DNA of 64,000 nt, from positions 4,591 through 68,590 of the forward strand of contig CANQBJ010000004.1 in the NCBI GenBank assembly GCA_947589665.1. The letters are read 5' to 3'. The notes below the pieces were generated by a model. That model was not told the DNA's origin. It did no database searches and worked only from the letters and a program-made list of their open reading frames with translations. Of this stretch, positions 4,292-62,372 are shown piece by piece; positions within the stretch are counted from its first letter, which is position 1, and the number at the start of each line of letters is the position of its first letter. The translations under genes and the position numbers were made by a program. This stretch comes from an uncultured Clostridia bacterium. Lineage in GTDB: Bacteria; Bacillota; Clostridia; Lachnospirales; CAG-274.

Positions 4292-4526
4292 GAAAACAAT
4301 TACAGTAGGCTCAAGCATGATAGAGAGACCTATACCTATGCTCGTACAGACAGCAGGCAGATATGCCAGCTCCTTACGTCTGAAAATGGACAACAAGGAA
4401 ATTAATTTAAAGAGCATTATGGGTGTTATATCTATCGGCACACTTTCAGGCAACAAGGTTGAGATCACAGCCGAGGGCGCTGATGAGGCTAATGCTTGCG
4501 AGGCTATCGTAGATTTCTTGAGTTGA
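4284..4526 (+). CDS. crh: HPr-family phosphocarrier paralogue lacking the His15 site (Crh-like)
   Basis: HPr fold signature with the Ser46 context NLKSIMG conserved. The His15 position (GxHARP in HPr) reads MIERP, so there is no histidine. It sits downstream of whiA, as crh does in Bacillus. Confidence 0.75.
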   Translation: MVKKTITVGSSMIERPIPMLVQTAGRYASSLRLKMDNKEINLKSIMGVISIGTLSGNKVEITAEGADEANACEAIVDFLS

Positions 4527-4549
4527 TCATACAGGCAGAGAAGAAGAGG

Positions 4550-4765
4550 AGTAGGCAATATCACCTCAAAGAGAGGAGCGCCCGCAGGCTGAAAGGCGCT
4601 TTGTCGTAAGTATTGCCGAAGGTAGCTTCGGAGCCTTTCTGCTGAAGAGATGTAAGCAGAGCGTCTGATCTGCGTTAAAGATCAAGAGTGCCTGTTTTAT
4701 ACAGGAATTAAGGTGGTACCACGGATACTTTCGTCCTTTATTAAACGAAAATATCCGTTTTTTGT
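4550..4765 (+). promoter_or_regulatory. T-box leader (valine specifier) with terminator, controlling valS
   Basis: Stem I has AGAGA and a distal loop. Specifier-loop candidates GUC/GUA (4603-4608) are both Val codons. Conserved T-box sequence AATTAAGGTGGTACCACGG (about 4707-4724). Terminator ACGGATAC..GTATCCGT plus T-run (4721-4764). Confidence 0.9.
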
Positions 4766-4812
4766 TTATTGTAAATACTATTATTAAGAACTATAACAGG
4801 AGGACAGCTATT

Positions 4813-40427: not shown

Positions 40428-40457
40428 TTTTATACAGTAAAAAATACTGTTATATAG

Positions 40458-40495
40458 AAAATCACATCTGATATAAACTCAGATGTGATTTTTTA
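40458..40495 (+). terminator. Intrinsic terminator after the SSS transporter gene
   Basis: 13-bp stem AAATCACATCTGA/TCAGATGTGATTT followed by TTTT. Confidence 0.85.
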
Positions 40496-40557
40496 TTAGC
40501 ATTATTATTGATTTGAAAAATAATATTGAAAAAAAGGAAATTTTTTTTGATTATATA

Positions 40558-40608
40558 TTGACACGGTGTCAGAATAGTGTTATCATAATTATACTGACAC
40601 GGTGTCAG
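40558..40608 (+). promoter_or_regulatory. Promoter with two copies of the palindromic operator TGACAC-G-GTGTCA (probable TetR autoregulation site)
   Basis: The -35 TTGACA (40558-63) overlaps palindrome 1 (40559-71). TATCAT follows after a 17-nt spacer (40581-86). Palindrome 2 is at 40595-40607. The two 20-nt repeat units differ at one base. Confidence 0.7.
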
Positions 40609-40641
40609 AACTATATATCAATATACGAGGAGGAGTTAAAA

Positions 40642-41193
40642 ATGAAAAAGAATATAGGTTCTGTACTTGCACTATATCCAACGCCTGTAACTGTGATCGG
40701 CGCTATGAACAATGATAAGCCTACATGGACCCTTGTTGCCCATATAGGAATAATAGGACACGACAGAGTGCTTGTAAGTCTAGCAGAGCCTCATTTTATA
40801 AACGGATGTATCAAGAAGACAAATAAACTTTCCATAAATCTTGTTGATGAAGGCATTCTGAAAGAAACGGACTATACAGGCTCTGTCAGCGGTAAAAAAG
40901 CAGATAAATCAAATGTATTTGACTATGAACTCGGTGAAAATGGAACACCTGTTATAAGTAAATCGCCTTTGACAATGGAATGCACTGTTGCAGATATTTA
41001 CAATACGCCAAATTTTGAAAGCTTTATATGCACTATCGACAACACCTATGTGTCCGAGGAACACTTGGATGATAACGGCAAAATAAATTACAATACATTA
41101 AAGCCTGTTTTGTTTGAGTTTCCTACATACCAATATCTGAGAACAGGTGAAGTTATAGGCAAATGTCTTTCTTTTGCCGATAAGGACAAGTAA
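40642..41193 (+). CDS. Flavin reductase-like FMN-binding domain protein
   Basis: Flavin_Reduct-type N-terminus LYPTPVTVIGA and a split-barrel pattern. GAGGAGGAG RBS before ATG 40642; the ORF-track start 40513 reads through the operator repeats. Confidence 0.8.
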   Translation: MKKNIGSVLALYPTPVTVIGAMNNDKPTWTLVAHIGIIGHDRVLVSLAEPHFINGCIKKTNKLSINLVDEGILKETDYTGSVSGKKADKSNVFDYELGENGTPVISKSPLTMECTVADIYNTPNFESFICTIDNTYVSEEHLDDNGKINYNTLKPVLFEFPTYQYLRTGEVIGKCLSFADKDK

Positions 41194-41239
41194 TTTTATT
41201 TTTACATACACATAATCAAATAAATCAAGGAGATATATT

Positions 41240-41866
41240 ATGCCAAAAGGATCACCCGAACTTACAAGTGCAAGAAAAGAAGAAATTATAAATGCCTGCG
41301 AAAAGCTGTATAAGACAATGAGCTTTAAGGAAATAACCATTAAAGAAATAGGAGATGCCACAAGCTTTACACGAACATCTATCTATAATTATTTTCAGAC
41401 AAAGGAAGAAATATTTCTTGCGCTATTGACAAGAGAGTATGAATACTGGATAGTCGATCTTAAGACTATGACAGAAAAATATGAGACCCTTACAAAAGAG
41501 GATTTTGCTGATAAAATGGCACATTCTCTGGAAAAGCGTTCTCAGCTTCTGAAAATTTTGTCAATGAATCATTACGATATGGAGGAAAACAGCCGCTCCG
41601 AATATTTGACTGCAATGAAGGTTGCATATGGTAATTCAATAAGGGCAGTAAATGATTGCCTGAATAAGTTTTTCCCTCATATGACAAACAAGGAAAAACA
41701 AAATTTCATATATGTTTTCTTCCCGTTTATGTTTGGTATATATCCCTATACCGTAGTTACCGAAAAGCAGAGAGAAGCTATGGAAGCAGCAAATGTGGAT
41801 TATGTTTTTATGTCTATATATGAAATAATATACGACTGTGTACTAAATTTATTAAAGGAGAGATAA
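41240..41866 (+). CDS. TetR/AcrR-family transcriptional regulator
   Basis: N-terminal HTH FKEITIKEIGDATSFTRTSIYNYFQTKEEIF. Confidence 0.88.
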   Translation: MPKGSPELTSARKEEIINACEKLYKTMSFKEITIKEIGDATSFTRTSIYNYFQTKEEIFLALLTREYEYWIVDLKTMTEKYETLTKEDFADKMAHSLEKRSQLLKILSMNHYDMEENSRSEYLTAMKVAYGNSIRAVNDCLNKFFPHMTNKEKQNFIYVFFPFMFGIYPYTVVTEKQREAMEAANVDYVFMSIYEIIYDCVLNLLKER

Positions 41867-41868
41867 TA

Positions 41869-42003
41869 ATGAATAATAAAAATAATTTACCTAAAATAGC
41901 CCTTGGCGCATGGGCTTGGGGAAACGACGGAACATTCGGAAATGAATTTACGGCGGAAACACTGAAACCTATTTTTGATAAAGCTATGGAGGTTATATTA
42001 TGA
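41869..42003 (+). pseudogene. N-terminal remnant (44 codons) of an aldo/keto reductase
   Basis: It translates as MNNKNNLPKIALGAWAWGNDGTFGNEFTAETLKPIFDKAMEVIL*. This matches an AKR N-terminus (LG.W..G ... A...G), but the frame stops exactly where the next gene starts (ATGA overlap at 42000). Confidence 0.5.
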
Positions 42004-43019
42004 AAAAAATCTTATTGGTAATTTTTACATTAATATTCTTTTGTATGACGGCTGCATCAGTGAATGCGGCAGAGTCAGACGATCTGACAATTCAGCTTAA
42101 AATAGACAGTCCTCTTATGCTTGTAAATAACGAGGAAAAAACCATTGACGAAAATGGCACCTCTCCTGTTATTGTCAAAAGCAGAACGCTTTTGCCTGTT
42201 CGTGCCGTAGTTGAGGAAATAGGCGGCAGTGTGGAATGGGACGCAGATACAAAGACGGTAGGTTTACAGAGCGGAGATAACAATATAAAGCTCGAAATAG
42301 ACAGCGCAACAGCCTATCTCAATAACGAACCATATACTCTTGATACTCCTCCTGCCATAATAGGCGGAAGGACTATGCTGCCCATACGCTTTATAGCCGA
42401 GAGCTTTGGTCTTGAGGTTATCTGGAACGGCGAAGAACAAACCGTAACCATTGTAAAAAAATCGGATATACAAACAGAAAGAGTAACTTCTGCCGAGGCA
42501 GCAACAGAAAGTACCACAGCCGAGGAAACAACGGAAAGTGATAACAATATTCTTGTAGTCTATTTTTCTGCAACAAACAATACAAAGGGTGTAGCGGAGA
42601 AAATAGCTGAGGCGGCAGAAGCCGATATCTATGCCATAACTCCTGCAATACCATACACAGACGCAGACATTGACTATAATACCGAATGCCGTGCAAATAA
42701 AGAACAGAACGACGACAGCGCACGCCCCGAAATTTCCGGAACGGTGGAAAATATGGAGGATTACGATACTGTTTTTATAGGTTATCCCATATGGTGGGGA
42801 CAGGCACCTAAAATAATGTATACATTTATGGAAAGCTATGATTTTAACGGTAAGACTATAATTCCCTTCTGTACATCGGGCAGCAGCCCCATAGGTACAA
42901 GCGCAGAAAATATGCAGGGGCTTACCCAAGGAGCAAAATGGCTTGAAGGTAGACGTTTCAGCGGAGGAGCCTCCGCTGATGAAGTAAGAGGTTGGGTAAA
43001 TTCTCTTGGGCTCAAATAA
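42000..43019 (+). CDS. Exported fusion protein: signal peptide + Cu_amine_oxidN1-like domain + flavodoxin-like (Flavodoxin_4-type) domain
   Basis: Signal peptide ending SVNA-AE. TLLPVRAVVEEIGGSVEWDADTKTV and GRTMLPIRFIAESFGLEVIW repeats. Then ILVVYFSATNNTKGVAE...YPIWWGQAP...PFCTSGSS. Confidence 0.8.
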   Translation: MKKILLVIFTLIFFCMTAASVNAAESDDLTIQLKIDSPLMLVNNEEKTIDENGTSPVIVKSRTLLPVRAVVEEIGGSVEWDADTKTVGLQSGDNNIKLEIDSATAYLNNEPYTLDTPPAIIGGRTMLPIRFIAESFGLEVIWNGEEQTVTIVKKSDIQTERVTSAEAATESTTAEETTESDNNILVVYFSATNNTKGVAEKIAEAAEADIYAITPAIPYTDADIDYNTECRANKEQNDDSARPEISGTVENMEDYDTVFIGYPIWWGQAPKIMYTFMESYDFNGKTIIPFCTSGSSPIGTSAENMQGLTQGAKWLEGRRFSGGASADEVRGWVNSLGLK

Positions 43020-43035
43020 GATCGGAGGTGCGGAA

Positions 43036-43274
43036 ATGAACAAGATCGCATCGGTTTTGCTCTCTGCCATATTATCGTTCAGCGCTACGATATGAGCGGT
43101 AAAACAATAATACCGTTTTGCAGTATGGGCGGCGGACGCTTCGGGCAGACAATAAGCGCTGTGGCGAAGCTTGCTCCTAACAGCGAAATTAAAGAAGGCC
43201 TTTGCGTAACATATTCATCTTATGACAGAGATGAAATAAAGAAATGGCTTGATAATAATAAAATATCAAAATAA
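43036..43274 (+). pseudogene. Decayed exported-flavodoxin gene (19-codon signal-peptide stub plus out-of-frame C-terminal third)
   Basis: After a GGAGG RBS, MNKIASVLLSAILSFSATI* is encoded at 43036-43095. Frame-shifted ORF 43092-43274 encodes GKTIIPFCSMGGG...IKKWL, the C-terminal part of the same flavodoxin family. Confidence 0.55.
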
Positions 43275-43283
43275 AGGAAAATG

Positions 43284-43357
43284 CTTTAATAAAAACTTAA
43301 TAATTTTTTTATAGAATAATATTGACTTAAAGTCATATTCAAGTTTTAGTATTAAAT
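43284..43357 (+). repeat. Copy 1 of a 74-bp promoter/operator cassette
   Basis: 69/74 nt identical (manual alignment) to 47156-47229. TTGACT (43322-27), 19-nt spacer, TAGTAT (43347-52). Palindrome TGACTT-A-AAGTCA at 43323-35. Confidence 0.8.
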
Positions 43358-43632
43358 ATAGCTTAATGTTTGGCGGCAATTAATTATACCCCCTCTGCTA
43401 TCAGTCATTTTCAAAGGCTGATAGCGTGAATATAGGAAACAGTAAACGCTTTGCCTTTTATTTGCCCCTATTCTATAGGCAAAGTTTTTACTTGTTTCCG
43501 CTTTCTTTTTAAATATTTCAAATGATGATATCTATAATTCCTACAGACAGCTATATGACTTTTGACAAAAATAGAATAATTGATATATACTTAAACATAT
43601 CATAATATTCGTCAGTTAAGGAGGTTTTTGTT

Positions 43633-44166
43633 ATGAAAATAGTTATAATAAAGGGCAGCCCTCATAAAAAGGGTTCATCAAATATGCTGGCAGACCAATT
43701 TATAAAGGGCGCAGAAGAAAATGGCCATAAAATTATTGAGCTTGACGCGGCGCATATGGATATTCACCCCTGTATAGGCTGTGAATTCTGCGGTATGAAC
43801 GGAGAGTGTTCGCAAAAAGATGATATCGGGCAGATAAGAGACGCTTTGCTTTCATCGGATATGGCTGTGTTCGTAACACCTGTGTATTATTTCGGAATGT
43901 CAGCACAGCTTAAAATGGTCATAGACCGTTTTTACAGCTATACAATGAAGCTTTCCGCAAAGCATCTTAAAACGGCTCTTATTACTGCCGCCTGGGATTC
44001 AAATGACGATGTTATGCCCTATATTGCAGAGCATTATAAAAAGCTGTGCAGATATATGCATTTCAAGGATATGGGTATGGTACTTGGTACAGGCTGTGGT
44101 ACACCCTCAATGACGGCAGGCAGCATACATATGGAAGAGGCTTATACTCTTGGAAAATCTGTATAG
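43633..44166 (+). CDS. Iron-sulfur flavoprotein / NADPH-dependent FMN reductase family protein
   Basis: Flavodoxin-like fold (KGSPHKKGSSN) and a compact Cys motif CIGCEFCGMNGEC, as in Isf-type proteins. AGGAGG RBS. Confidence 0.8.
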   Translation: MKIVIIKGSPHKKGSSNMLADQFIKGAEENGHKIIELDAAHMDIHPCIGCEFCGMNGECSQKDDIGQIRDALLSSDMAVFVTPVYYFGMSAQLKMVIDRFYSYTMKLSAKHLKTALITAAWDSNDDVMPYIAEHYKKLCRYMHFKDMGMVLGTGCGTPSMTAGSIHMEEAYTLGKSV

Positions 44167-44183
44167 AAAAGAGGTCATATAAT

Positions 44184-45194
44184 ATGAAATATACAAAGCT
44201 TGGAAATTCAGATTTGAATGTTTCCCGCATATGTATGGGTTGTATGGGCTTTGGAAATGCCTCTACAGGACAGCATAGCTGGACTGTAGACGAGGAGCAG
44301 ACAAGGGAAATAATAAAGCATGGTCTGGATATGGGTATCAATTTTTACGATACCGCCATAGTCTATCAGAACGGCACAAGCGAACAGTATGTGGGAAGGG
44401 CATTGAGAGATTTTGCAAAGCGTGAGGACTATGTTATAGCTACGAAATTCACTCCCAGAACACAGGAGGAAATAGACAACAATATAAGCGGACAGCAGCA
44501 TATTGAAAACTATTTAAACCAAAGCCTTAAAAATCTGGGTATGGACTATGTCGACCTGTATATTTACCATATGTGGGATTATCACACACCTATGGAGGAA
44601 ATAATGGAGGGACTTCATAAGGCTGTAAGATCGGGAAAGGCACGATATATAGGCATTTCAAACTGCTTTGCATGGCAGCTTGCAAAGGCAAACTTCTATG
44701 CAAGGGAAAAGGGTCTTACGGAATTTATAACCGTGCAGGGACATTACAATCTTATTGCAAGAGAGGAGGAACGGGAAATGGTGCCTTTCTGCAGGGATCA
44801 GAATATTGCCCTTACTCCCTACAGCGCCCTTGCAAGCGGCAGACTTTCAAGGCATACGGGAGAAAGCACAAAGCGTTTTGAAGAGGATTCATATGCGCAT
44901 TTCAAGTATGACAGAACTGCCGAGGCAGACGGAAAAATTATAAAGCGTGTAGAGGAGCTTGCAGATAAAAGAAACGTATCCATGACAGAAATATCACTGG
45001 CTTGGCTTTTGACAAAGGTCGATTCTCCTGTTGTGGGCGCAACAAAGCTTTCACACATAGACGGCGCTGTAAAAGCCGTTGACCTTGAACTGACTGAGGA
45101 TGAAATAAATTATTTGGAGGAACTGTATGTTCCCCACGCTCTTGCGGGAGTTATGGCGCAGAACGGAAAACAAAAAGCAGGAAATGTAGTATAA
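44184..45194 (+). CDS. Aldo/keto reductase
   Basis: LGNSDLNVSRICMGCMGFG, INFYDTA, and GISN motifs. ATG 44184 follows GAGG; the ORF-track start 44046 overlaps the previous gene. Confidence 0.9.
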   Translation: MKYTKLGNSDLNVSRICMGCMGFGNASTGQHSWTVDEEQTREIIKHGLDMGINFYDTAIVYQNGTSEQYVGRALRDFAKREDYVIATKFTPRTQEEIDNNISGQQHIENYLNQSLKNLGMDYVDLYIYHMWDYHTPMEEIMEGLHKAVRSGKARYIGISNCFAWQLAKANFYAREKGLTEFITVQGHYNLIAREEEREMVPFCRDQNIALTPYSALASGRLSRHTGESTKRFEEDSYAHFKYDRTAEADGKIIKRVEELADKRNVSMTEISLAWLLTKVDSPVVGATKLSHIDGAVKAVDLELTEDEINYLEELYVPHALAGVMAQNGKQKAGNVV

Positions 45195-45211
45195 AAAAGG
45201 AGTGTTACATT

Positions 45212-45694
45212 ATGGGTAAAATTTTAACGGCATATTTTTCAGCAAGCGGAAATACAAAAAGACTTGCAGAGACCATAGCAAAGGCGGCAGGCGCAGATAT
45301 ATTTGAGATAGCTCCCCCTGTGCCTTATACCAACGACGATCTTAACTGGATGAACAAAAAGAGCCGCAGCAGTATTGAGATGAATGACAAAGGCTCAAGA
45401 CCAGAAATAGCAGGCTCCGTAGAAAATATGGGACAGTATGATACAGTTTTAATAGGCTTTCCCGTATGGTGGTATGAGGCGCCCAGAATAATACAGACCT
45501 TCCTGGAAAGCTACGATTTTTCAGGAAAAAATATTGTGACCTTTGCCACATCCGGCGGCAGCGGTATGGGAAGGACCAACGATATTCTGGCGCGCTCCTG
45601 TTCTCCTGATGCAAAGTGGCTTGACGGAAAGCGTATGAGCAGCAATACCGATATAAATACAATAAAGGATTGGCTTGGCAGCCTTAATATATAA
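45212..45694 (+). CDS. Cytoplasmic flavodoxin-like protein (Flavodoxin_4-type)
   Basis: ILTAYFSASGNTKRLAE and FPVWWYEAP. No signal peptide. Paralogue of the 42000 and 46476 flavodoxin domains. Confidence 0.85.
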   Translation: MGKILTAYFSASGNTKRLAETIAKAAGADIFEIAPPVPYTNDDLNWMNKKSRSSIEMNDKGSRPEIAGSVENMGQYDTVLIGFPVWWYEAPRIIQTFLESYDFSGKNIVTFATSGGSGMGRTNDILARSCSPDAKWLDGKRMSSNTDINTIKDWLGSLNI

Positions 45695-45707
45695 GGAGGA
45701 TATCAAT

Positions 45708-46463
45708 ATGAAAAAAATAACACAGACAGCAGGAAGAGATCAGCTTGGTAGCTTTGCTCCTGATTTTGCACATTTTAATGATGATGTACTTTTCGGTGAG
45801 AACTGGAACAACGAGGATATTGACTTAAAGACGCGCTGCATTATTACAGTTGTTGCCCTTATGTCATCGGGAATAACCGATTCTTCATTGACATATCACC
45901 TTGAAAATGCCAAGGCTCACGGTGTAACAAAGGAAGAAATAGCTTCTATTGTTACCCATGTTGGCTTTTATGTAGGCTGGCCAAAGGCTTGGGCTGTTTT
46001 CCGCCTTGCTCTTGACGTATGGAACGAAAAAGCAGCAGAGCAAACCGAAAAGGATAAATATCAGAACACCATACTTTTCCCTATAGGCGAGCCTAACAAT
46101 GGCTTTGCCAAATACTTTATAGGACAGAGCTATCTTGCGCCCATATCAAAAGAGCAGGTTGGGATATTCAATGTTACCTTTGAGCCTAGATGCCGCAACA
46201 ACTGGCATATACACAATGCGGACAAGGGCGGCGGTCAGATACTTATTTGTGTAGGTGGTCGTGGATATTATCAGGAGTGGGGCAAGGATGCCGTTGAAAT
46301 GAAGCCCGGCGACTGCATAAATATCCCTACAGGCGTAAAGCATTGGCACGGTGCTGCTCCCGATAGCTGGTTTTCACATCTCGCCATAGAGGTTCCCGGT
46401 GAAAACGGCTCCAATGAATGGCTTGAGCCTGTTGACGATGAGCAATACAATAATTTGAAATAA
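45708..46463 (+). CDS. Carboxymuconolactone decarboxylase (AhpD-like) domain fused to a cupin domain
   Basis: CMD-like helix bundle (LDLKTRCIITVVAL...GVTKEEI.....H...Y.GWP). C-terminal cupin (NWHIH....GQIL.C..G.G....G.......GD...IP.GVKHWHGA). Confidence 0.8.
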   Translation: MKKITQTAGRDQLGSFAPDFAHFNDDVLFGENWNNEDIDLKTRCIITVVALMSSGITDSSLTYHLENAKAHGVTKEEIASIVTHVGFYVGWPKAWAVFRLALDVWNEKAAEQTEKDKYQNTILFPIGEPNNGFAKYFIGQSYLAPISKEQVGIFNVTFEPRCRNNWHIHNADKGGGQILICVGGRGYYQEWGKDAVEMKPGDCINIPTGVKHWHGAAPDSWFSHLAIEVPGENGSNEWLEPVDDEQYNNLK

Positions 46464-46475
46464 GGAGAGTTTAAA

Positions 46476-47111
46476 ATGAAATATTTATCCCTAATATTAT
46501 CTGTGTTATTGCTTGCCTGTGTTCTTTGCGCCTGTACCTCAGGCGGCAGAGAAGAGGCAGTACAAAATACATCAGAGGAAACTGCTGTACAGGAAACCGA
46601 TTTAGAAGATGAAACTGTCTCAAAGGGCAGCGGGAAAATACTTGTAGCATATTTTTCGGCATCAGGAAATACAAAGGCCGTTGCTGAAAAGACAGCGGAA
46701 ACAGTCGGAGCGGATATATTTGAAATTGTCCCCTCTGTGCCTTATACAGACTCCGATCTTAACTACGGAGATGACAACAGCCGTACAACTGTAGAACAGA
46801 ATGACGATACCGCTCGCCCCGAAATTTCGGGAACGGTAGAAAATATGGAAGATTACGACACCGTTTTCATAGGCTATCCCATTTGGTGGGGACAGGCGCC
46901 TAAAATAATGTATACATTTCTGGAAAGCTACGATTTTAATGGAAAGACTATAATTCCATTCTGTACCTCGGGCAGCAGTCCCATAGGCTCAAGCGCAGAA
47001 AATATGCAGAGCCTTACAACAGGGGCAAGCTGGCTTGAAGGTCAGCGTTTTAGCGCAGGTGCATCCTCAGAGGAGGTAAGCGGTTGGGTAAATTCTCTCG
47101 GACTTAAGTAA
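46476..47111 (+). CDS. Lipoprotein-type exported flavodoxin-like protein
   Basis: Signal peptide with lipobox-like LLAC/LCAC, an acidic linker, then ILVAYFSASGNTKAVAE...YPIWWGQAP. 89 of the last 99 aa are identical to the 42000 protein (manual alignment). Confidence 0.8.
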   Translation: MKYLSLILSVLLLACVLCACTSGGREEAVQNTSEETAVQETDLEDETVSKGSGKILVAYFSASGNTKAVAEKTAETVGADIFEIVPSVPYTDSDLNYGDDNSRTTVEQNDDTARPEISGTVENMEDYDTVFIGYPIWWGQAPKIMYTFLESYDFNGKTIIPFCTSGSSPIGSSAENMQSLTTGASWLEGQRFSAGASSEEVSGWVNSLGLK

Positions 47112-47155
47112 TAGGTTCATATATAAATCCGATATACAAAAAATAAAGCAGAACA

Positions 47156-47229
47156 CTTTAATAAAAACTTAATAATTTTTTGCGAAAATCATATTGACTT
47201 AAAGTCATATTCAAGTTTTAGTATTAAAT
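47156..47229 (+). repeat. Copy 2 of the 74-bp promoter/operator cassette
   Basis: TTGACT (47194-99), 19-nt spacer, TAGTAT (47219-24). Palindrome TGACTT-A-AAGTCA at 47195-47207. An additional TATAAT at 47233-38 lies 17 nt after TTCAAG. Confidence 0.8.
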
Positions 47230-47269
47230 TAGTATAATACATTTTTATATTACAAAAGGAGGCTTAAAT

Positions 47270-48709
47270 ATGACAAAAACTTTAATTATCAAAAAAGCGG
47301 CGGTATTTGTGTTTGCCGCGGCACTTGTATGCGCAGTGTTTCTTGTTTTTGTAGGCAGAGGAAACAGCGAAAGCATTACCTATGCCGCAGATGAGGAAAA
47401 CACTATAGTACTTACAATTGACAGCCCTGTTATGAGCGTAAACGGTGAGGAAAGAGATATAGACCCGGAGGGCGGTACGGCTCCCGTTATAATTTCCGGC
47501 AGAACTCTTGTACCCATAAGAGCAATAATTGAAAATATGGGCGGAACTGTGGAATGGAAGGGTGAAACAAGGGAAAGTATTCTCACATACGGTGAGGATG
47601 TCATAAGGCTTACCATAGATTCACAGACAGCATATCTCAATGACAATGCAAGTACTCTTGATACTGCACCCACTATCATAAACGGCAGAACGATGCTGCC
47701 TATAAGATTTATTGCGGAGAGCTTTGGCTTTAATGTGGACTGGAACGAAGGAGAAAGAACGATAACAATATCCCAAAAGGCGGCTGTATCTGAAAGCGAT
47801 ACACCTCCCGAAAACACACCTGTTGCACAGACAAATGAAAACGCTCCTGTTGTATATATGACAAAGAATATTACTCCGCAAGCTCTTGTTGATATATATG
47901 ACAAGCTGGGCTTTAATGCAGAGGGAAATGTAGCCGTGAAAATGTCAACGGGCGAGCCTCCTGCCAGCAATTATTTAAGACCTGAGCTTATAGGCGACCT
48001 TGTTAAAAAGGTAGACGGAACTATTGTAGAATGCAACACAGCCTATGGCGGCAGCCGTTCTTCATCTGCCGCACATTGGCAGGTAATAAAGGACCATGGT
48101 CTTGATACTATCACCGAAAAGGGTGCGGACATAATGGACGAGGAAAGCGATATGGAGATTCCTGCGTCAAAAGGCACTACCATACATGAGGACTATGTAG
48201 GCTCCCATCTTGCAAATTATGACTGTCTTATATCTCTTGCTCACTTCAAGGGTCATGCTATGGCAGGCTATGGCGGAGCTATTAAAAATATGTCCATAGG
48301 CGTTGCGTCAAGCAAAGGTAAAATGTGGATACACAGCGGCGGCACCAGCACCAGCTCTTGGAGCGGAGAACAGGACAAATTCCTTGAGGCCATGGGCGAC
48401 GCTACAAGCGGTGTTGTAGACTACCTTGACGGCAAGGTGGTATATATAAATGTAATGAACCGTCTGTCAGTAGACTGTGACTGTGACGGCAACCCTGCAG
48501 AACCGGATATGCACGACATAGGCATTCTTGCATCAACAGACCCCGTTGCTTTGGATCAGGCTTGTCTTGACCTTATCTATGAGCAAAAGGATGGCGACGG
48601 CGCATCTCTTGTAAATCGTATAGAAAGCAGAAACGGACTGCACACTCTTGAACACGCAGAGGAAATAGGCTTAGGCTCAAGAGAATATCAGTTGGTAAGC
48701 ATAGATTAA
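47270..48709 (+). CDS. Exported/membrane-anchored fusion: N-terminal TM or signal anchor + Cu_amine_oxidN1-like domain + DUF362 domain
   Basis: Hydrophobic AAVFVFAAALVCAVFLVFVG. RTLVPIRAIIENMGGTVEW and GRTMLPIRFIAESFGFNVDW repeats. DUF362-like core (ECNTAYGG, LAHFKGHAMAGYGGAIKNMSIG, DCDCDG). Confidence 0.75.
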   Translation: MTKTLIIKKAAVFVFAAALVCAVFLVFVGRGNSESITYAADEENTIVLTIDSPVMSVNGEERDIDPEGGTAPVIISGRTLVPIRAIIENMGGTVEWKGETRESILTYGEDVIRLTIDSQTAYLNDNASTLDTAPTIINGRTMLPIRFIAESFGFNVDWNEGERTITISQKAAVSESDTPPENTPVAQTNENAPVVYMTKNITPQALVDIYDKLGFNAEGNVAVKMSTGEPPASNYLRPELIGDLVKKVDGTIVECNTAYGGSRSSSAAHWQVIKDHGLDTITEKGADIMDEESDMEIPASKGTTIHEDYVGSHLANYDCLISLAHFKGHAMAGYGGAIKNMSIGVASSKGKMWIHSGGTSTSSWSGEQDKFLEAMGDATSGVVDYLDGKVVYINVMNRLSVDCDCDGNPAEPDMHDIGILASTDPVALDQACLDLIYEQKDGDGASLVNRIESRNGLHTLEHAEEIGLGSREYQLVSID

Positions 48710-48754
48710 GGAGTACTGAATTTAGTACCTACAGCAGAAAAGGACCGTTTATAA

Positions 48755-49666
48755 ATGACAAATGAATTACTTGCTGTATTAAAGCGTGAATTTATATATA
48801 TATGGTATTATTTTGAGATACAGCTTAGGCAGATATTCTTTTACTGGGCTGTAGGTATTGTAATAGGCTCTGTAATATCGGTTTTCGGCAAACAGAAAAT
48901 TCATTCCCTTATGTCCGTAATACAGGATAAGCACTTGGGAATAATGGGCATTATACCCGCAAGCCTTATAGGTATAGCGTCGCCTCTTTGTATGTACGGC
49001 ACTATACCTCTTGCGGCAGCCTTTTCCGAAAAGGGCATGAAAGACGATTACCTTGCCGCCTTTATGATGAGCAGTATTCTTTTAAATCCTCAGCTTATCA
49101 TATACAGTGCGGCTTTGGGCAGATATGCTCTTTGCATACGCTTTATATCCTGCTTTATATGCGGTATAACGGCAGGACTTGTAATAAGAATATTTTACAG
49201 GGATAAGCATTTCTTTGACTTTACGGGCTTTTCCGAAGGCGCAAGCAGAGATACTCACCCAAATATGCTTATAAGGCTTATAAAGAACATAGGCAGGAAC
49301 ATAAAGGCTACGGGACCTTATTTCCTCATAGGCATACTGCTCTCCGCATTATTCCAGAGATATGTACCACAGGAGGTTTTTGCAAGGCTTTTCGGCAGTA
49401 ACGAAGGCTTCGGTTTGCTTATGGCAGCCACAATAGGTGTTCCTCTCTATGCCTGCGGCGGAGGTACTATACCCTTGCTTCAGCAATGGCTTTCAGACGG
49501 TATGACCATGGGTTCAGCTACGGCTTTTATGATAACGGGACCTTCCACTAAAATAACTAATCTCGGCGCACTTAAAATAGTGCTTGGTATAAAGAATTTT
49601 ATGCTGTATATATTGTTTGTAATGGTGTTTGCTTTGCTCAGCGGCATTATTGTAAATATCATATAG
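48755..49666 (+). CDS. UPF0718/ArsP-like permease
   Basis: About 8 TM helices and duplicated motifs SPLCMYGTIPL and VPLYACGGGTIPL, typical of the predicted-permease (ArsP_1) family. Confidence 0.75.
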   Translation: MTNELLAVLKREFIYIWYYFEIQLRQIFFYWAVGIVIGSVISVFGKQKIHSLMSVIQDKHLGIMGIIPASLIGIASPLCMYGTIPLAAAFSEKGMKDDYLAAFMMSSILLNPQLIIYSAALGRYALCIRFISCFICGITAGLVIRIFYRDKHFFDFTGFSEGASRDTHPNMLIRLIKNIGRNIKATGPYFLIGILLSALFQRYVPQEVFARLFGSNEGFGLLMAATIGVPLYACGGGTIPLLQQWLSDGMTMGSATAFMITGPSTKITNLGALKIVLGIKNFMLYILFVMVFALLSGIIVNII

Positions 49667-49684
49667 AGATCGGAGGAACAATGT

Positions 49685-49858
49685 ATGGAAAACATATGGG
49701 AAAGAGTTGATACAAGAATAAGGGACCCGAAGGGCAGGGCCGTGGGACAGCGTAATTCAAAGCTTATGTTTGAACTTAATCATACAATGCCTCAGACCGA
49801 AGAATACTTCAAAATATTTATTGTAAATGCAAGGTCCTGCCGTTTATATAAAGATTAA
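49685..49858 (+). pseudogene. N-terminal fragment (57 codons) of a maltose/galactoside O-acetyltransferase-like gene
   Basis: MENIWERVDTRIRDPKGRAVGQRNSKLMFELNHTMPQTEEY... resembles the Mac N-terminal domain, but the hexapeptide-repeat body is missing. A hairpin CTGCCGTTTA/TAAACGGCAG follows immediately. Confidence 0.45.
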
Positions 49859-50093
49859 ACGGCAGAACCTTTTTGCCTATTAAATCGGGAATCATAGATC
49901 ATCATATTCCCATATACCGAAATTCCTGCATTACATCATAGCCTGCTATAAAATTTTCATATGGAAACTTATCATACGTTACCTTTGCCTTAAAAACTTC
50001 CAAAATTTGAGCTTTTGTCTTATAGTATAAAATTCCGTTTAAAACAAATACTAGTGACATCGATAAATAAAAATTCAAGGAGGAGGAGTTGTT

Positions 50094-56039: not shown

Positions 56040-56308
56040 CCTGTGCTAGCCGGGGAGGCAGCGGTGCCCTGTAGTCTGCAATCCGCTTTAGCAGAGTTTA
56101 TGTCCTTTGCCGAGGCATCAGTCTGTGGAGCTGCCTTGGACTATCCGATGTTGACGATTGAGTCTTACGCAATAGAACCTTGTGAACCGTGTCAGGTCCG
56201 GAAGGAAGCAGCACTAAGTAAGTCATTCTATGTGTCGTAAGGTAGCTTGATCCGAGTCGGGTACCCAAGTAACGTCTGTAGGCTGCTGTCAGAGCAGGAT
56301 GCACAGGA
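56040..56308 (+). ncRNA. ffs: Signal recognition particle RNA, long (Bacillus-type, Alu-domain-containing) form
   Basis: Conserved domain IV sequence GTCAGGTCCGGAAGGAAGCAGC. 5' CCTGTGC pairs with 3' GCACAGG. About 269 nt, downstream of tadA as in other Firmicutes. Confidence 0.9.
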
Positions 56309-56348: not shown

Positions 56349-56673
56349 ATTTAGACTTTGGAAAAAACAATATTTTGACCGTAAATATGAATTAAAATAA
56401 AGAACAGCTTGCAAAAAGCGTCGCAGACTTTAATCCGCAGGAGGAATTCACTTCCTCCGAGGACAGGGACTTTACTGATATTTTGCACACTTGTCAAAAT
56501 ATCAGTAAACACGTCAGCACTTTCACTTTGTGAAAGCCAGCCTTCGGCTGTCCGATAAATCTTTCGGTGCAATGCTGGTCCCTACCATTGAATCGGAAAG
56601 ATTAATCCGACAGGGTATAAGCCCTGCTTTTACCGAAGGTAAAAGTTCTGATAGCTAACTGAAAGAAATGTCT

Positions 56674-57855
56674 TTAGGCATTTCTTTCAAGTAAATATTT
56701 ATACGACTTATCAATACATATTGCGCCGAAGGGCGCAGTGATCAGTATAGAAAGTACGGCAACGGTCAGCACTGTATTTCCGCAGGCAAGACCCATTGAA
56801 AGAGGCAGTGAGCCTATTGCCGCCTGTACAGTTGCCTTAGGGGTATAGGCAAGCATTGTAAACAGCCTTTCCTTTTTGTTAAGCTTAGTTCCAAGCACAG
56901 ATGTAAATACACCGCACATTCTGAAAACAAGGGCAAAAAGCACTATTACCACTGCAGCTGCTCCTGCGGCAAGGGCATAGCTTATGTCAACGGCAGCGCC
57001 TACAAGTACAAATAATACTATTTCTCCGAATATCCAAAGACTGTTATATACCTTTGATATTTCTTTTGCCTGACTTGGATTTACTCTGTTAAGTATTATC
57101 CCAGAGGACATTATTGCAAGAAGTCCCGAAACGGGTATAATACCCTCCAGCATATCCTCAAACGCTATGAGAAGAAATGAAGTACTGAGCATAATAAGTA
57201 CCTTAACTGTAGTGTTAAGCTTTGTTTTGGAGAAAAACATATTGAGACCAAGACCTACAGCTATACCTAAAAGTATGCCAAGTACTATTGAAACAGGTAT
57301 TTCGGCAAATAATACAGGTGAGACCTTTCCGCCTGAGGCAGCGGTAAGCAGGGCTGTGAACACAACTATGACAAACACATCATCTACAGAGGCGCCTGCC
57401 AGTATCATCTGAGGTATGCTTTTATTTGTGCCGTATTTGTTTTCTATAAGGCTTATCATTCTCGGCACAACAACAGCAGGAGAAACTGCCGCAATGACAG
57501 CGCCTATAAGACCTGCCTCCATAAGTGTAACATTTAAAAGCAAAGGGGCAATTATGAAAGCTCCGCATATTTCAAAGCAGGCGGGCAGAAAGCATAGCAG
57601 AAGGGCAGGACGGCCTGCCTTTTTAAGGTCGCTTATATCCAGTGTAAGACCTGCTCTTGTCAGTATTATAACAAGGGCGAACTGCCTTAAGTCTGCCGAA
57701 ATATCCAGTATGCCTCCTCTTAGTATATTAAGGGCATAAGGTCCTGCCAGTATACCCATAAATATCATACCTATAAGCGGCGGCAGCTTTAAAAGCCTTA
57801 AAATATAGCTGCCAATAAGTCCCAGTATCAGAATAATTGCCATATCTGTAAGCAT
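56674..57855 (-). CDS. Cation:proton antiporter (Na_H_Exchanger/CPA family)
   Basis: About 11-12 TM helices with a typical CPA N-terminus (LP.LIG.I..GIL.GP). ATG 57855 is preferred because AGAGG lies 8 nt upstream; the ORF-track start 57873 lacks an RBS. Confidence 0.85.
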   Translation of the reverse strand: MLTDMAIILILGLIGSYILRLLKLPPLIGMIFMGILAGPYALNILRGGILDISADLRQFALVIILTRAGLTLDISDLKKAGRPALLLCFLPACFEICGAFIIAPLLLNVTLMEAGLIGAVIAAVSPAVVVPRMISLIENKYGTNKSIPQMILAGASVDDVFVIVVFTALLTAASGGKVSPVLFAEIPVSIVLGILLGIAVGLGLNMFFSKTKLNTTVKVLIMLSTSFLLIAFEDMLEGIIPVSGLLAIMSSGIILNRVNPSQAKEISKVYNSLWIFGEIVLFVLVGAAVDISYALAAGAAAVVIVLFALVFRMCGVFTSVLGTKLNKKERLFTMLAYTPKATVQAAIGSLPLSMGLACGNTVLTVAVLSILITAPFGAICIDKSYKYLLERNA

Positions 57856-57968
57856 AAAAGTACCTCTTTTCATTTATATAATAAAAAAAGCCGATAATAC
57901 TCCTGTAAAGCAGAAGTCATCAGCTTAAAGCGGTTTAGTCCAAAGACAAGGGAGACGTTCATTCCCTG
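57856..57968 (-). promoter_or_regulatory. Structured 5' leader with intrinsic terminator upstream of the antiporter gene (candidate attenuator/riboswitch)
   Basis: Minus-strand promoter TTGACA (58003-57998), 17-nt spacer, TATACT (57980-57975). The leader holds a hairpin AGGGA..TCCCT, then a 14-bp interrupted stem (57924-57890) followed by U7 (57889-57883), just before the RBS. Confidence 0.55.
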
Positions 57969-58049
57969 TAAACAAGTATATTACTGTTTATGTTTTTTGT
58001 CAACAGCATATTTAAAATTTATATAAATATAATAATATGAGGTGATTTT

Positions 58050-62031: not shown

Positions 62032-62159
62032 TTTGTAATATAATTATAACATTGCAGATATATAAAGTCAAGAGTTTTTGCGCAATAATATAAATTATTA
62101 AACAAGAAAATAAAGATATGTTGACAACAGGACTAAATAATGATATAGTTAAGATAATA

Positions 62160-62372
62160 CAAGGATAGAGGTGCATTTACATCAGTAGATTAATAGATGC
62201 CGCAGAGGGCAGCCGATATTAATTGAAAGGGGAAGATGCCGAAGAATACAGCCTCTCTGACAAGCTGTGTTCTGGTTGCTGCAGCCAACAGCTCAGCGAC
62301 TGTCATTGTGTATGCAATGGAGAGCTATCTGTGTAAGTTTCTTCACAGATTGGCTTTTGTCAATCTTTTTTA
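62160..62372 (+). promoter_or_regulatory. Lysine riboswitch (L-box) with terminator, controlling asd-dapA
   Basis: AGAGGTGC start, GAAAGGGGAAGATGCCGAAG, ACTGTCA...AATGGAGAGCTATC. Terminator AGATTGGC/GTCAATCT plus T-run (62347-71). Promoter TTGACA (62121-26), 17 nt, TATAGT (62144-49). Confidence 0.88.

Follow-up and report, generated by a model that had tools for sequence, protein, structure and literature searches.

An island pairing cytoplasmic NAD(P)H flavoenzymes with exported flavodoxin-like proteins and a DUF362 protein in an uncultured Clostridia bacterium

Extracytosolic proteins of the Flavodoxin_4 family were shown experimentally in one case, the subset flavinylated by ApbE, which is linked to the DUF4405 cytochrome (Huang 2024; PMC11334425). 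DUF4405 is a haem-b-binding protein associated with Flavodoxin_4 outside the cytosol (PMC11334425). This small flavinylated subset is the only published part of the exported family (Huang 2024). An earlier note on the DNA studied here had presented extracytosolic flavodoxin-like proteins as unusual; the 2024 work provides a precedent. We describe a computational analysis of the same 64-kb stretch (64,000 nucleotides, hereafter the window), in which positions 40516–49666 form a discrete island between two strong terminators. The edges of DNA homology to the relative L001 lie at exactly these two positions. The analysis confirmed that the island is a gene set pairing cytoplasmic NAD(P)H flavoenzymes with membrane-tethered extracytoplasmic flavodoxin-like proteins. 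The terminators, gene locations and domain assignments proposed earlier were all correct, the latter by Pfam scans. The features are as follows (dN/dS values relative to L001; AKR, aldo/keto reductase):

40455–40496, + strand: intrinsic terminator, left island boundary, closing the upstream SSF symporter gene (17-bp stem, then U-run; −20.3 kcal/mol, z −7.6)
40554–40610, + strand: unit 1 promoter (TTGACA, 17 nt, TATCAT with TG) and probable TetR operator
40642–41193, + strand: cytoplasmic flavin reductase (Flavin_Reduct, PF01613; Pfam E 8e-15; dN/dS 0.08)
41240–41866, + strand: TetR-family repressor (Pfam TetR_N and TetR_C_34; dN/dS 0.08)
41870–42004, + strand: 44-aa N-terminal stub of an IolS-like AKR gene that lost 866 bp to a deletion
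42000–43019, + strand: exported protein with Sec signal peptide (..SVNA/AE), Cu_amine_oxidN1, linker and Flavodoxin_4 (Pfam E 2e-53 and 7e-37; dN/dS 0.14)
43037–43274, + strand: remnant of a lipoprotein FGE-sulfatase-Flavodoxin_4 gene (signal-peptide stub 43037–43096, last 60 codons 43092–43274)
43268–43357, + strand: copy 1 of a 90-nt repeat (repeat analysis), with a −35-like TTGACT inside the palindrome TGACTTAAAGTCA
43395–43500, + strand: two strong hairpins, then T-run, probable terminator of unit 1 (−41.2 kcal/mol, z −8.6)
43562–43591, + strand: unit 2 promoter (TTGACA, 18 nt, TATACT; 11/12 consensus matches)
43633–44166, + strand: Isf-like iron-sulfur flavoprotein (FMN_red; Pfam E 1e-20; dN/dS 0.06)
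44181–45194, + strand: canonical NAD(P)H-type AKR, IolS-like (Pfam E 2e-73; best PDB match 1PYF, E 5e-49)
45212–45694, + strand: cytoplasmic Flavodoxin_4, FATSG / WWY signature (Pfam E 3e-64)
45705–46463, + strand: CMD (AhpD-like)-cupin fusion without signal peptide (Pfam)
46476–47111, + strand: lipoprotein Flavodoxin_4, FCTSG / WWG signature (Pfam; dN/dS 0.13)
47140–47229, + strand: copy 2 of the 90-nt repeat, unit 3 promoter region (repeat analysis)
47270–48709, + strand: exported Cu_amine_oxidN1-DUF362 protein (Pfam, LarA-like fold; dN/dS 0.08)
48755–49666, + strand: ArsP_1 permease (Pfam E 1e-40)
49685–49858, + strand: 57-aa ORF (44–47% identity over 36 aa to ORFs of L126 and L151)
49829–49880, + strand: intrinsic terminator, right island boundary (hairpin, then U-run; −21.9 kcal/mol, z −5.4)

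The first promoter had been described as operator-controlled, and a perfect 13-bp palindrome, TGACACGGTGTCA, is indeed found in two copies (40559–40571 and 40595–40607) flanking its TTGACA/TATCAT elements. This pair is the probable TetR operator; a 54-nt stretch of this region is 89% conserved 5′ of the tetR gene in the distant locus L010. Unit 2 is as tightly packed as claimed, with intergenic gaps of 10–17 nt rather than 12–17 nt. The reported duplication of the unit 3 promoter is real in that the two 90-nt copies are 90% identical, but they are dispersed.

Three gene remnants are found in the island. The AKR stub is 93% identical to the N-terminus of an intact 314-aa AKR in the relative L007. 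What had been taken for a broken third flavodoxin gene is a remnant, as proposed, but of an FGE-sulfatase-Flavodoxin_4 lipoprotein fusion: L007 carries the intact 484-aa orthologue (positions 3681–5132, both domains recognized by Pfam), relative to which ~1.2 kb are deleted in the window. The 57-aa ORF, which has no Pfam match, is probably the N-terminal remnant of a ~190-aa protein found near DUF362 genes in other loci. These remnants, and the lack of genes present in fuller versions (DUF4405, a small membrane protein, larBCE), could mean that what is left in the window of a formerly complete island is decaying and no longer functional. We consider this very improbable: the ten remaining genes, the promoters, the operator and the terminators are intact, and all ten genes are under purifying selection despite the remnants (dN/dS 0.04–0.14 at dS 0.35–0.75 against L001, an 88–90% identical relative).

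Export was judged by heuristics, namely sequence rules and conservation. The lipoprotein Flavodoxin_4 features a signal peptide, a lipobox with Cys20, a ~30-residue acidic disordered linker and the FMN domain. A twin-arginine motif is absent from every exported island protein, in line with the Sec-type export postulated earlier. The proposed FMN-type nature of the redox domains is also supported. FMN-binding loops are retained in the window flavodoxin domains, which match FMN-bound 3KLB with an E value of 1e-46, and a model superposes on FMN-bound 4ICI, 3KLB and 4J8P with TM-scores of 0.89–0.94 (rmsd 1.2–1.9 Å). No flavinylation motif is found in the sequence of the Cu_amine_oxidN1-Flavodoxin_4 protein, and the window Flavodoxin_4 proteins are predicted to be of the non-covalent FMN type. 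On the cytoplasmic side, the translated Isf-like protein carries a CX2CX2CX5C motif, CIGCEFCGMNGEC.

Exported Flavodoxin_4 proteins are no oddity of this window but a large conserved subfamily of gut Firmicutes. At least 7,959 homologues were found at E≤1e-10, GTDB genomes gave at least 591 species hits, and 99 of the best 120 homologues have a lipobox. In 80 related loci a lipobox or signal peptide precedes 103 of 143 Flavodoxin_4 domains. Surface tethers include the lipobox, Cu_amine_oxidN1, SLH and dockerin modules, with Big_2 among other anchors or fusions; tandem multi-flavodoxin surface proteins also occur.

In these 80 loci, each from a different species, exported flavodoxin genes form same-strand operons with genes for AKRs, for CMD-cupin proteins and for NAD(P)H-linked flavin reductases of the cytoplasm (FMN_red of the Isf-like type, Flavin_Reduct and a cytoplasmic Flavodoxin_4). 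Gene densities per 100 kb at 0–2.5 kb from the flavodoxin gene, compared to 7.5–10 kb, are 11.6 vs 0.9 for AKR (62/63 on the same strand), 6.5 vs 1.3 for FMN_red, 5.1 vs 0 for CMD and 5.9 vs 0 for cupin. At least one of these four families is present in 61 loci, and a CMD-cupin gene adjoins the exported flavodoxin gene in 20. Exported and cytoplasmic genes thus co-occur, nearly always on the same strand, far above the chance level that the earlier note had named as speaking against its interpretation.

The reading we favor, which we put, mechanism included, at about even chances of being right, is that the window holds a trimmed, self-contained, TetR-regulated accessory island belonging to an uncharacterised surface redox system that is widespread in gut Firmicutes. 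The DUF4405 haem-b membrane cytochrome, whose presence in fuller islands escaped the earlier note, is encoded in 17 of the 80 loci (21%; 46 bits in Pfam), immediately 3′ of a flavodoxin gene in 13 of them. DUF4405, FGE-sulfatase and Flavodoxin_4 form a single polypeptide in L027 and L030, while L099, L023 and L010 combine the gene set of the window with DUF4405. Its absence from most related loci counts against the favored reading. So does the content of the window, which has no transmembrane electron carrier, apbE, flavin exporter or larBCE. Pfam scans of ORFs of at least 90 aa across the 64 kb found no Ndh2, EetA/B, FMN_bind, ApbE or DUF4405, which bears out the reported absence of Listeria-type extracellular electron transfer genes; phmmer searches of all six frames found no DUF4405 or LarB/C/E.

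The lack of a membrane electron conduit in the window and in 63 of the 80 loci is also what an ordinary cytoplasmic regulon for electrophile, quinone or peroxide detoxification would show. Its exported flavodoxin-like proteins would carry no electrons; they would be surface binders of FMN or riboflavin, which they capture or retain, or of flat aromatic xenobiotics, and would share no more than regulation with the rest. Companion genes typical of stress and detoxification (LysR, TetR, MerR, MarR, HxlR, MATE, Fe-ADH, ABM) fit this explanation, as does Sec export, which implies that flavin must be acquired extracellularly. However, the 13 loci with DUF4405 directly after the lipoprotein flavodoxin, its fusions to FGE-sulfatase and flavodoxin, the flavodoxin-DUF362 fusions and the tandem multi-flavodoxin surface proteins are difficult to reconcile with it; a flavin uptake transporter is not among the linked genes, and the FMN-binding loops are strongly conserved. 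We regard this explanation as unlikely.

The exported DUF362 protein looks like a candidate LarA-like nickel-pincer enzyme, a resemblance missed by the earlier note together with the ArsP_1 partnership (see below). Its N-terminus has a 20-residue hydrophobic core that may, judging from sequence, be an uncleaved signal anchor. The top 17 PDB matches in Foldseek are all LarA-family nickel-pincer enzymes (5HUQ, E 2.5e-6, probability 1.0), the first match after this family having an E value of only 0.08. H329, K339 and H355 are invariant, are spaced as LarA His174, Lys184 and His200, and in an alignment match the Lys and His residues in a LarA homologue. Sequence comparison lends this link weak support: the Lar_N profile scores 20.6 bits, under its 23.3 cut-off, hhalign gives a probability of 1.1%, and no LarA was retrieved by a profile search of PDB sequences. 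LarB, LarC and LarE equivalogs are encoded in the DUF362 operon in L087–L090 and L037 and nearby in L143; larBCE adjoins DUF362 in just ~6 of ~100 loci examined, which argues against the favored reading. The AKR adjoining in L089 is of the canonical NADPH type. An AKR-Fer4 protein sharing the DUF362 cluster in L087 and L143 could be the nickel-pincer user instead of DUF362, as Ni-AKRs exist (PMC13524815). DUF362 and Flavodoxin_4 are fused in one polypeptide in P0299, P0379 and L091. A further difficulty is that the favored reading would require Sec-exported proteins to be loaded outside the cell with both FMN and a nickel-pincer cofactor; for the nickel-pincer cofactor this has, to our knowledge, no precedent.

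The ArsP_1 gene lies 3′ of 23 of 43 Sec-type DUF362 genes, of neither of the two with an RRDFLK Tat signal, and of at most one of the eight without a signal. This distribution points to the permease being a specific conserved downstream partner of Sec-exported DUF362. Its nearest NCBIfam models are efflux transporters, with scores under their cut-offs.

The pathway might run in reverse, as an extracellular dehydrogenase in which DUF362 uses its pincer cofactor to oxidise a sugar, a hydroxy acid, an alcohol or similar hydroxy compound outside the cell. The surface flavodoxins would receive the electrons and deliver them to soluble acceptors (oxygen, quinones, humics or Fe(III), for example) or, by way of DUF4405, to the cell interior. 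LarA-type cofactors take hydride from 2-hydroxy acids (PMC11770544), exported DUF362 occurs as a fusion with CBM9 and dockerin in communities that break down fibre (PMC5742341), P0379 joins it to a dockerin-like module, and cohesin and dockerin proteins are encoded close by in the host. Maintenance of purifying selection without an island-encoded DUF4405 also agrees with this direction. However, it does not explain why the genes are so tightly linked in operons with NAD(P)H-dependent reductases of the cytoplasm, substrate evidence is lacking, and so is an obvious acceptor for many strict anaerobes; we think it a doubtful alternative.

In the favored reading of a surface redox system, the cytoplasmic and exported gene sets would be two sides of one stress-inducible pathway, linked across the membrane in fuller islands by the DUF4405 cytochrome, whose gene directly follows that of the lipoprotein flavodoxin. 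The surface flavodoxins would serve exported catalytic modules, the FGE-sulfatase-like domain (deleted in the window) and DUF362. The latter, a LarA-fold enzyme most likely carrying a tethered nickel-pincer nucleotide, could exchange hydride, in either direction, with extracellular carbonyl or hydroxy compounds, FMN being the redox partner, since this cofactor takes the place of NAD(P)H in protein-bound form. Most likely, the ArsP_1 permease carries cofactor or nickel across the membrane, loading the Sec-exported apo-protein. Having no DUF4405, apbE or larBCE, the window copy would therefore need either another donor or genes from other parts of the genome. Reduction of extracellular quinones or xenobiotics, as raised in the earlier note, would be a possible role of the island.

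The earlier interpretation as a whole is partly supported. The relatives suggest a widespread, unstudied surface redox system, with the DUF362 partner as a new lead. Compared to known systems, the DUF362 protein retains the cofactor-binding Lys and His of LarA, and the published Flavodoxin_4 subset is ApbE-flavinylated whereas the window proteins appear to hold FMN non-covalently.

The ten intact genes of the island (window 40516-49666) all lie on the forward strand in three transcription units. An ORF listing and Pfam scans bore out each of the genes and domains that an earlier note had proposed from the sequence alone. They are the following (the source of the domain assignment is given in parentheses):

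40642-41193 (+), flavin reductase, Flavin_Reduct (Pfam)
41240-41866 (+), TetR regulator (Pfam)
41870-42004 (+), stub of an aldo/keto reductase (AKR), 44 aa
42000-43019 (+), signal peptide-Cu_amine_oxidN1-Flavodoxin_4 protein (Pfam)
43633-44166 (+), Isf-like FMN_red protein (Pfam, E 1e-20)
44181-45194 (+), AKR (Pfam)
45212-45694 (+), cytoplasmic Flavodoxin_4 protein (Pfam)
45705-46463 (+), CMD-cupin protein (Pfam)
46476-47111 (+), lipoprotein Flavodoxin_4 (Pfam)
47270-48709 (+), Cu_amine_oxidN1-DUF362 protein (Pfam)
48755-49666 (+), ArsP_1 permease (Pfam)

The left-hand bounding terminator folds at -20.3 kcal/mol (z -7.6) and the right-hand one at -21.9 kcal/mol (z -5.4), both ahead of a U-run. 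The TetR gene codes for a protein with a TetR_N HTH, and two copies of the perfect palindrome TGACACGGTGTCA flank a near-consensus promoter. This palindrome is a predicted operator overlapping the promoter, the organization that defines a TetR-regulated operon, and it is conserved in L010 (L numbers designate gene loci in other genomes). The “duplicated promoter” of the earlier note is a 90-nt repeat (43268-43357 and 47140-47229). The two copies are 90% identical and have a -35-like TTGACT within the palindrome TGACTTAAAGTCA, whose outer TGAC/GTCA is shared with the TetR operator. Within the CMD gene (45817-45830) the 14-mer ATATTGACTTAAAG appears once more, its third occurrence, and the first copy of the repeat has no obvious gene to drive. 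The Rfam scan found no riboswitch or other Rfam family inside the island. Isf iron-sulfur flavoproteins are defined by a compact CX2CX2CX4-7C cluster motif; the translated Isf-like gene combines an FMN_red fold with such a motif, CIGCEFCGMNGEC.

The remainder of the window codes for housekeeping genes and cohesin/dockerin surface proteins, and the host organism has cellulosome-like parts. Two genes in segment 22032-25595 code for a 746-aa LRR_5-cohesin-dockerin protein and a 435-aa cohesin-Cu_amine_oxidN1 protein. The presence of Cu_amine_oxidN1 on a cohesin surface protein fits a role as a surface module in this organism. A fluoride riboswitch (57904-57975, minus strand) is found directly upstream of a Na_H_Exchanger-family gene (56674-57873, minus strand). 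The other RNA elements are:

4529-4741, T-box before the valyl-tRNA synthetase gene
56041-56306, SRP RNA
62158-62335, lysine riboswitch

The island behaves as a unit. Locus L001, from a rabbit-gut Clostridia MAG (GCA_947585865.1), has the identical ten genes in identical order, and its DNA homology to the window (88-90%) spans exactly window positions 40516-43073 and 43569-49666. The flanks are unrelated: in L001 the island adjoins integrase, ferredoxin and NlpC/P60 genes, in the window an SSF symporter gene and SpoVT. In base composition the island cannot be told from its flanks, which gives no evidence for recent transfer; the case for relocation is made by the unrelated L001 flanks and the integrases nearby. 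Outside the island, a 100-nt stretch just after the SRP RNA (window 56413-56513, L001 19375-19476) is 89% identical in the two genomes. Set against locus L007, the window has two deletions: 866 bp are gone from an IolS-like AKR, of which the 44-aa stub is left, and ~1.2 kb from a lipoprotein FGE-sulfatase-Flavodoxin_4 gene, of which the start of the signal peptide and the final 60 codons persist. Between the permease gene and the terminator, a 57-aa ORF (49685-49858) is similar to the N-terminal part of ~190-aa proteins whose genes neighbour DUF362 in L126 and L151; judged from this similarity, it is probably a third gene remnant. All ten intact genes have dN/dS values of 0.04-0.14 at dS 0.35-0.75 between the window and L001, low ratios that show purifying selection, by which the trimmed island is kept.

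The flavodoxins predicted to be exported belong to a large and distinct class of proteins. The three intact flavodoxin copies of the island, two of this exported type and one cytoplasmic, match Flavodoxin_4 (PF12682) with 180, 216 and 193 bits (Pfam cut-off 24). The lipoprotein has at least 7,959 homologues at E≤1e-10, and 99 of the 120 best ones carry a canonical lipobox at the same position. Its N-terminus, MKYLSLILSVLLLACVLCAC followed by TSGG, positions Cys20 in alignment with the LAAC cysteine of the homologues, a predicted lipidation site. A survey with one genome per species gave at least 591 hits. The best 80 loci were analysed and come from Lachnospiraceae, Oscillospiraceae, Christensenellaceae, Monoglobus, Selenomonas, Pelosinus, Leptotrichia and one spirochaete. 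They encode 143 Flavodoxin_4 domains, 103 of which are behind a lipobox (75) or a signal peptide (28). When the cytoplasmic paralogue was used as query, most of the best 150 cluster representatives had N-terminal extensions or were multidomain proteins; the ones looked at individually carry Big_2, SLH, dockerin-like, FGE-sulfatase or cyclophilin-like modules and are surface proteins.

In the AlphaFold model of the lipoprotein flavodoxin, a signal helix is joined by some 30 disordered, acidic linker residues to a confidently modelled FMN domain (pLDDT >95, residues 53-211). This model superposes on 4ICI, 3KLB and 4J8P with TM-scores of 0.89-0.94 and rmsd of 1.2-1.9 Å. The YFSxxGNT, GYPIWW and TSGSS loops are conserved, so that the predicted structure has a flavodoxin-like fold with the loops for phosphate and isoalloxazine binding in place. 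The three Bacteroides proteins, all from structural genomics, are 44-48% identical to the window lipoprotein domain, with FMN-binding loops alike, and FMN is seen in the 3KLB crystal. Comparison of the loops in the window copies and in loci L007-L086 separated exported from cytoplasmic domains. FCTS is found in 73 of the 76 scorable exported domains and FATS in 9 of the 11 cytoplasmic ones, while WWG is present in 65/78 exported domains and WWY in 22/25 cytoplasmic ones. The solved chains 3KLB and 4ICI have FATSGGS and, at the WW pair, WWY (3KLB) or WWD (4ICI), as opposed to the FCTSG and WWG of the exported subfamily. The near-invariant cysteine of exported domains (PFCTSGSS), an alanine in cytoplasmic copies, 3KLB and 4ICI (FATSGGS), could provide a covalent flavin link, a disulfide or a contact with a partner.

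Some Flavodoxin_4 proteins of Firmicutes have an insertion with a Ser/Thr that is flavinylated by ApbE (Huang 2024 mSystems, PMC11334425). An assignment of the window flavodoxins to this type was rejected: they have no insertion between strand 1 and helix 1 relative to 3KLB, and the flavinylation motif D-[AGS]-x-[ST]-[GAS]-A-[ST] is found nowhere in the island ORFs. A flavinylation-like motif is present in only 2 of 146 related domains, the other 144 being without the insertion and Ser/Thr motif. The window proteins are thus assigned to a non-covalent exported class, and by analogy with 3KLB they would bind FMN non-covalently. No description of an exported, extracellular or lipoprotein flavodoxin of this non-covalent class was found in the open literature, and the class appears to be much larger than the published flavinylated subset.

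Genes for cytoplasmic redox enzymes cluster around the exported flavodoxin genes.

Neighbouring genes per 100 kb in the 80 loci, by distance from the gene for the exported flavodoxin
Family; 0-2.5 kb; 7.5-10 kb
AKR; 11.6; 0.9
FMN_red; 6.5; 1.3
CMD; 5.1; 0
Cupin; 5.9; 0
Flavin_Reduct; 2.4; 0

The neighbours are nearly all encoded in the same strand as the flavodoxin gene (62 of 63 for AKR), and 61 of the 80 loci have at least one of the five families. This steep fall of density with distance shows that exported and cytoplasmic genes co-occur more often than by chance; a chance-level co-occurrence, which the earlier note had named as a refutation of its reading, does not apply. Other recurrent neighbours code for LysR, TetR and MerR regulators, Fe-ADH, an acetyltransferase-like protein, MATE and ABM proteins, and a lipoprotein esterase similar to dienelactone hydrolases. 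A 1,287-aa protein (L091/L092 1129-4992, with an integrase nearby) has Pfam CMD, Cu_amine_oxidN1, two cupin and carboxylesterase domains, which implies that the “cytoplasmic” CMD and cupin modules may be displayed at the surface in some species.

A candidate for the membrane link is DUF4405, which binds haem b (PMC11334425). Of the 80 loci, 17 have a gene for it, which in 13 cases comes directly after an exported flavodoxin gene; the window and 79% of related loci lack it. L099, L023 and L010 have essentially the window gene set plus DUF4405 after the lipoprotein flavodoxin. Single DUF4405-FGE-sulfatase-Flavodoxin_4 polypeptides are found in L027 (10797-12986) and L030 (3263-5506). The presence of DUF4405 in the fuller islands suggests a reason for the joint encoding of cytoplasmic NAD(P)H flavoenzymes with surface flavodoxins: the two sets could be the ends of a single trans-membrane electron path.

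The other exported protein of the island, Cu_amine_oxidN1-DUF362, has a predicted relationship to the nickel-pincer enzyme LarA. The DUF362 domain model (pLDDT 85, pTM 0.88) retrieved only LarA-family structures at Foldseek PDB ranks 1-17 (E 2.5e-6 to 2.7e-3, probability 0.98-1.0; next hit E 0.08), with query-normalised TM-scores of about 0.5, and the model thus has a LarA-like alpha/beta fold. DUF362 and the LarA N-domain are placed in one Pfam clan, CL0471 (PMC11770544). All of 24 diverse homologues have residues H329, K339 and H355, which are kept in distant cytoplasmic and Tat-signal members too. Their spacing (10 + 16) is that of LarA His174 (catalytic), Lys184 (the cofactor tether) and His200 (a Ni ligand); the Lys and His of the DUF362 motif GGxxK-x15-H would, in the alignment, correspond to the cofactor-tethering Lys and the Ni-binding His of LarA. 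Support from sequence alone is weak. The Lar_N (PF09861) match has 20.6 bits, under the 23.3 cut-off, and covers only residues 309-357. A profile search of PDB sequences with the DUF362 protein returned the copper amine oxidase N-domain alone and no LarA. The hhalign comparison with a LarA homologue encoded beside larE, larB and larC on a Paenibacillus plasmid aligned GGAIK339NMSIGVASSKGKMWIH355 with SGIMK171MISIGLGKQKGAEACH187 at a probability of 1.1%. The DUF362-LarA link is therefore founded on fold, motif and gene context.

This gene context comes from other genomes, none of the larB, larC and larE genes being present in the 64-kb window. In L087-L090 and L037 the lar genes share an operon with DUF362. 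The order in L087-L090 is AKR, Cu_amine_oxidN1-DUF362, a pair of small membrane proteins, LarB, LarC, LarE and ArsP_1, with NCBIfam equivalog scores of 293, 213 and 333 bits for the Lar proteins. The spirochaete locus L037 has LarE-LarB-LarC, the same two small proteins and then a lipoprotein DUF362. At L143, larE-larB-larC are near a gene for a cytoplasmic DUF362, together with an AKR-Fer4 gene and a Nik-like ABC transporter. L091 and L137 have LarE only. Such lar-adjacent DUF362 genes are a minority (about 6 of ~100 DUF362 loci examined). The Lar_N/LarA family is not among the Pfam hits recorded for genes of L087-L092, and larA was not found in two plasmid lar loci (H6 and H1). The two small predicted membrane proteins (~115-126 aa and ~105 aa) have no Pfam or NCBIfam match and are encoded between DUF362 and larB or ArsP_1 (L089 8491-9207, L087 8703-9405, L037 14471-15117, and also L009, L013, L015 and L091). 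The motif WGGSALLAFEHxWHGE is present in one of them, and the window has neither.

Some AKRs are themselves nickel-pincer enzymes (NphT-type), found through their adjacency to lar genes (Nat Chem 2026, PMC13524815, where DUF362, flavodoxin and export have no mention). The AKR genes in operons with DUF362 and flavodoxin described here resemble this setting, and a nickel-pincer AKR rather than DUF362 could account for the larBCE linkage in L087 and L143, both of which have the AKR-Fer4 gene. L143, L087 and Clostridium butyricum each have an AKR-2x[4Fe-4S] gene among their lar genes. The same explanation was rejected for L089/L090, whose AKR is 1VP5-like, and for L037, which has no AKR. The AKRs of L089 and of the window differ from the NphT-type in being canonical NADPH-type enzymes (1VP5, E 4e-102, and 1PYF, E 5e-49, respectively). 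DUF362 is consequently the sole candidate for the lar linkage in L089 and L037. On the Clostridium butyricum megaplasmid NZ_CP039706.1 (L176 5998-12480; L177 7861-8979) a cluster has genes for a cytoplasmic-type Flavodoxin_4, larB, larC and larE, followed by an ECF transporter and an AKR whose C-terminal part has two 4Fe-4S motifs; it provides an independent tie of Flavodoxin_4 to pincer-cofactor enzymes.

DUF362 is also joined to flavodoxins by gene fusion. Protein P0299 is a signal peptide-Cu_amine_oxidN1-Flavodoxin_4-DUF362 polypeptide, P0379 has the architecture DUF362-dockerin-like-Flavodoxin_4, and L091 encodes a DUF362-Flavodoxin_4 protein. P0300 is Cu_amine_oxidN1-DUF362-cyclophilin-like, and flavodoxin-cyclophilin-like fusions exist too. 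Fusions of DUF362 with CBM9 and dockerin were noted previously (PMC5742341). Hydrophobic N-termini are found in 115 of the 120 best homologues of the window DUF362 clade, with lipoproteins frequent among the metagenome copies. Of 43 Sec-type DUF362 genes, 23 have an ArsP_1 gene next downstream; it is missing behind both copies with the canonical RRDFLK Tat signal, and at most one of the eight copies without signal has it. L102 (3194-4291) and L104 (9719-10861) encode DUF362 lipoproteins with a canonical twin-arginine signal (MKRRDFLKLSAA...AGAC), which implies export after folding, and have no ArsP_1 downstream. The nearest curated relatives of the window ArsP_1 are efflux transporters, matched below their cut-offs. 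The ArsP_1 pattern, drawn from small numbers, fits a supply of cofactor or metal to a DUF362 protein exported unfolded. Alternatively, the permease might serve nickel uptake.

We hypothesise that DUF362 is an extracytoplasmic nickel-pincer enzyme working with the surface flavodoxins. The pincer cofactor would be made in the cytoplasm by LarB, LarE and LarC and carried out by the ArsP_1-type permease, Tat-signal variants being loaded before export. Tethered to Lys339 of the surface DUF362, it would act as a protein-bound NAD(P)H substitute and exchange hydride with surface-tethered, non-covalent FMN flavodoxins, which DUF4405 cytochromes would wire to cytoplasmic NAD(P)H. The window copy is without the membrane cytochrome and the cofactor-synthesis genes of fuller islands. 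The data themselves establish which genes are present, their conservation and linkage, the predicted folds and motifs, and purifying selection; export, the binding of FMN and of a pincer cofactor, the route of the electrons and the task of the permease are inferred from them. Taken as a whole, this scheme of a second, largely extracytoplasmic nickel-pincer family, loaded by a permease and exchanging hydride with DUF4405-wired flavodoxins, is tentative and in our judgement rather unlikely to be right.

If true, it would bring hydride chemistry of pyridine-nucleotide style outside the cell, with the first extracellular nickel-pincer enzyme and its dedicated permease. In roughly 15% of genomes larB, larE and larC are present without larA (PMC11796402); the scheme would account for part of them and make DUF362 a testable candidate for the “missing” nickel-pincer cofactor users. 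It would also give many gut Clostridia, Negativicutes and some spirochaetes a surface redox apparatus of non-covalent flavodoxins, and explain the puzzling clusters of “flavodoxin”, AKR, cupin and CMD genes under LysR/TetR control that are common in gut genomes. Such an apparatus would bear on how anaerobes handle dietary or host carbonyls, quinones, oxygen and drugs at their surface. Experiments are feasible in cultured carriers such as Clostridium butyricum and Selenomonas ruminantium, the former being suited to study the flavodoxin/nickel-pincer link.

Among known systems, LarA, of the superfamily of nickel-pincer nucleotide racemases and epimerases (5HUQ; PMC11770544), differs from DUF362 in length (~420 aa versus ~290 aa for the DUF362 domain) and in that DUF362 is mostly exported (Sec, lipoprotein, sometimes Tat). 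The fusion or linkage of DUF362 to flavodoxin or Fe-S domains implies net redox chemistry, unlike the racemisation catalysed by LarA. To date DUF362 has served only as an outgroup. As the earlier note had stated, the known Listeria-type EET genes are absent from the window: no Pfam families corresponding to ndh2, eetA/B, dmkA/B, fmnA/B or a PplA-like FMN_bind lipoprotein were found in its ORFs of at least 90 aa, and neither Pfam (same ORFs) nor phmmer in six frames detected Ndh2, EetA/B, FMN_bind, ApbE or DUF4405 across its 64 kb. The published picture of surface flavodoxins comprises only covalently flavinylated proteins, substrates of ApbE, which cluster with apbE, a flavin transporter and DUF4405 (PMC11334425). 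That system and the window have in common PF12682 outside the membrane in Firmicutes, and 17 of 80 relatives of the window gene share with it a DUF4405 gene beside the flavodoxin gene; the window differs in lacking all three of these partners. The likeness to Listeria FLEET is that of a Gram-positive surface lipoprotein with flavin, presumed to be fed by cytoplasmic NAD(P)H. The flavin domain is FMN_bind in Listeria and a flavodoxin fold in the window, the flavin of Listeria PplA is covalent, and the Listeria system is quinone-dependent. The observation of the earlier note is real and its interpretation partly right: the comparative evidence is good for a surface redox module organised differently from the Listeria system, to which we add that it is distinct from the published flavinylated one as well.
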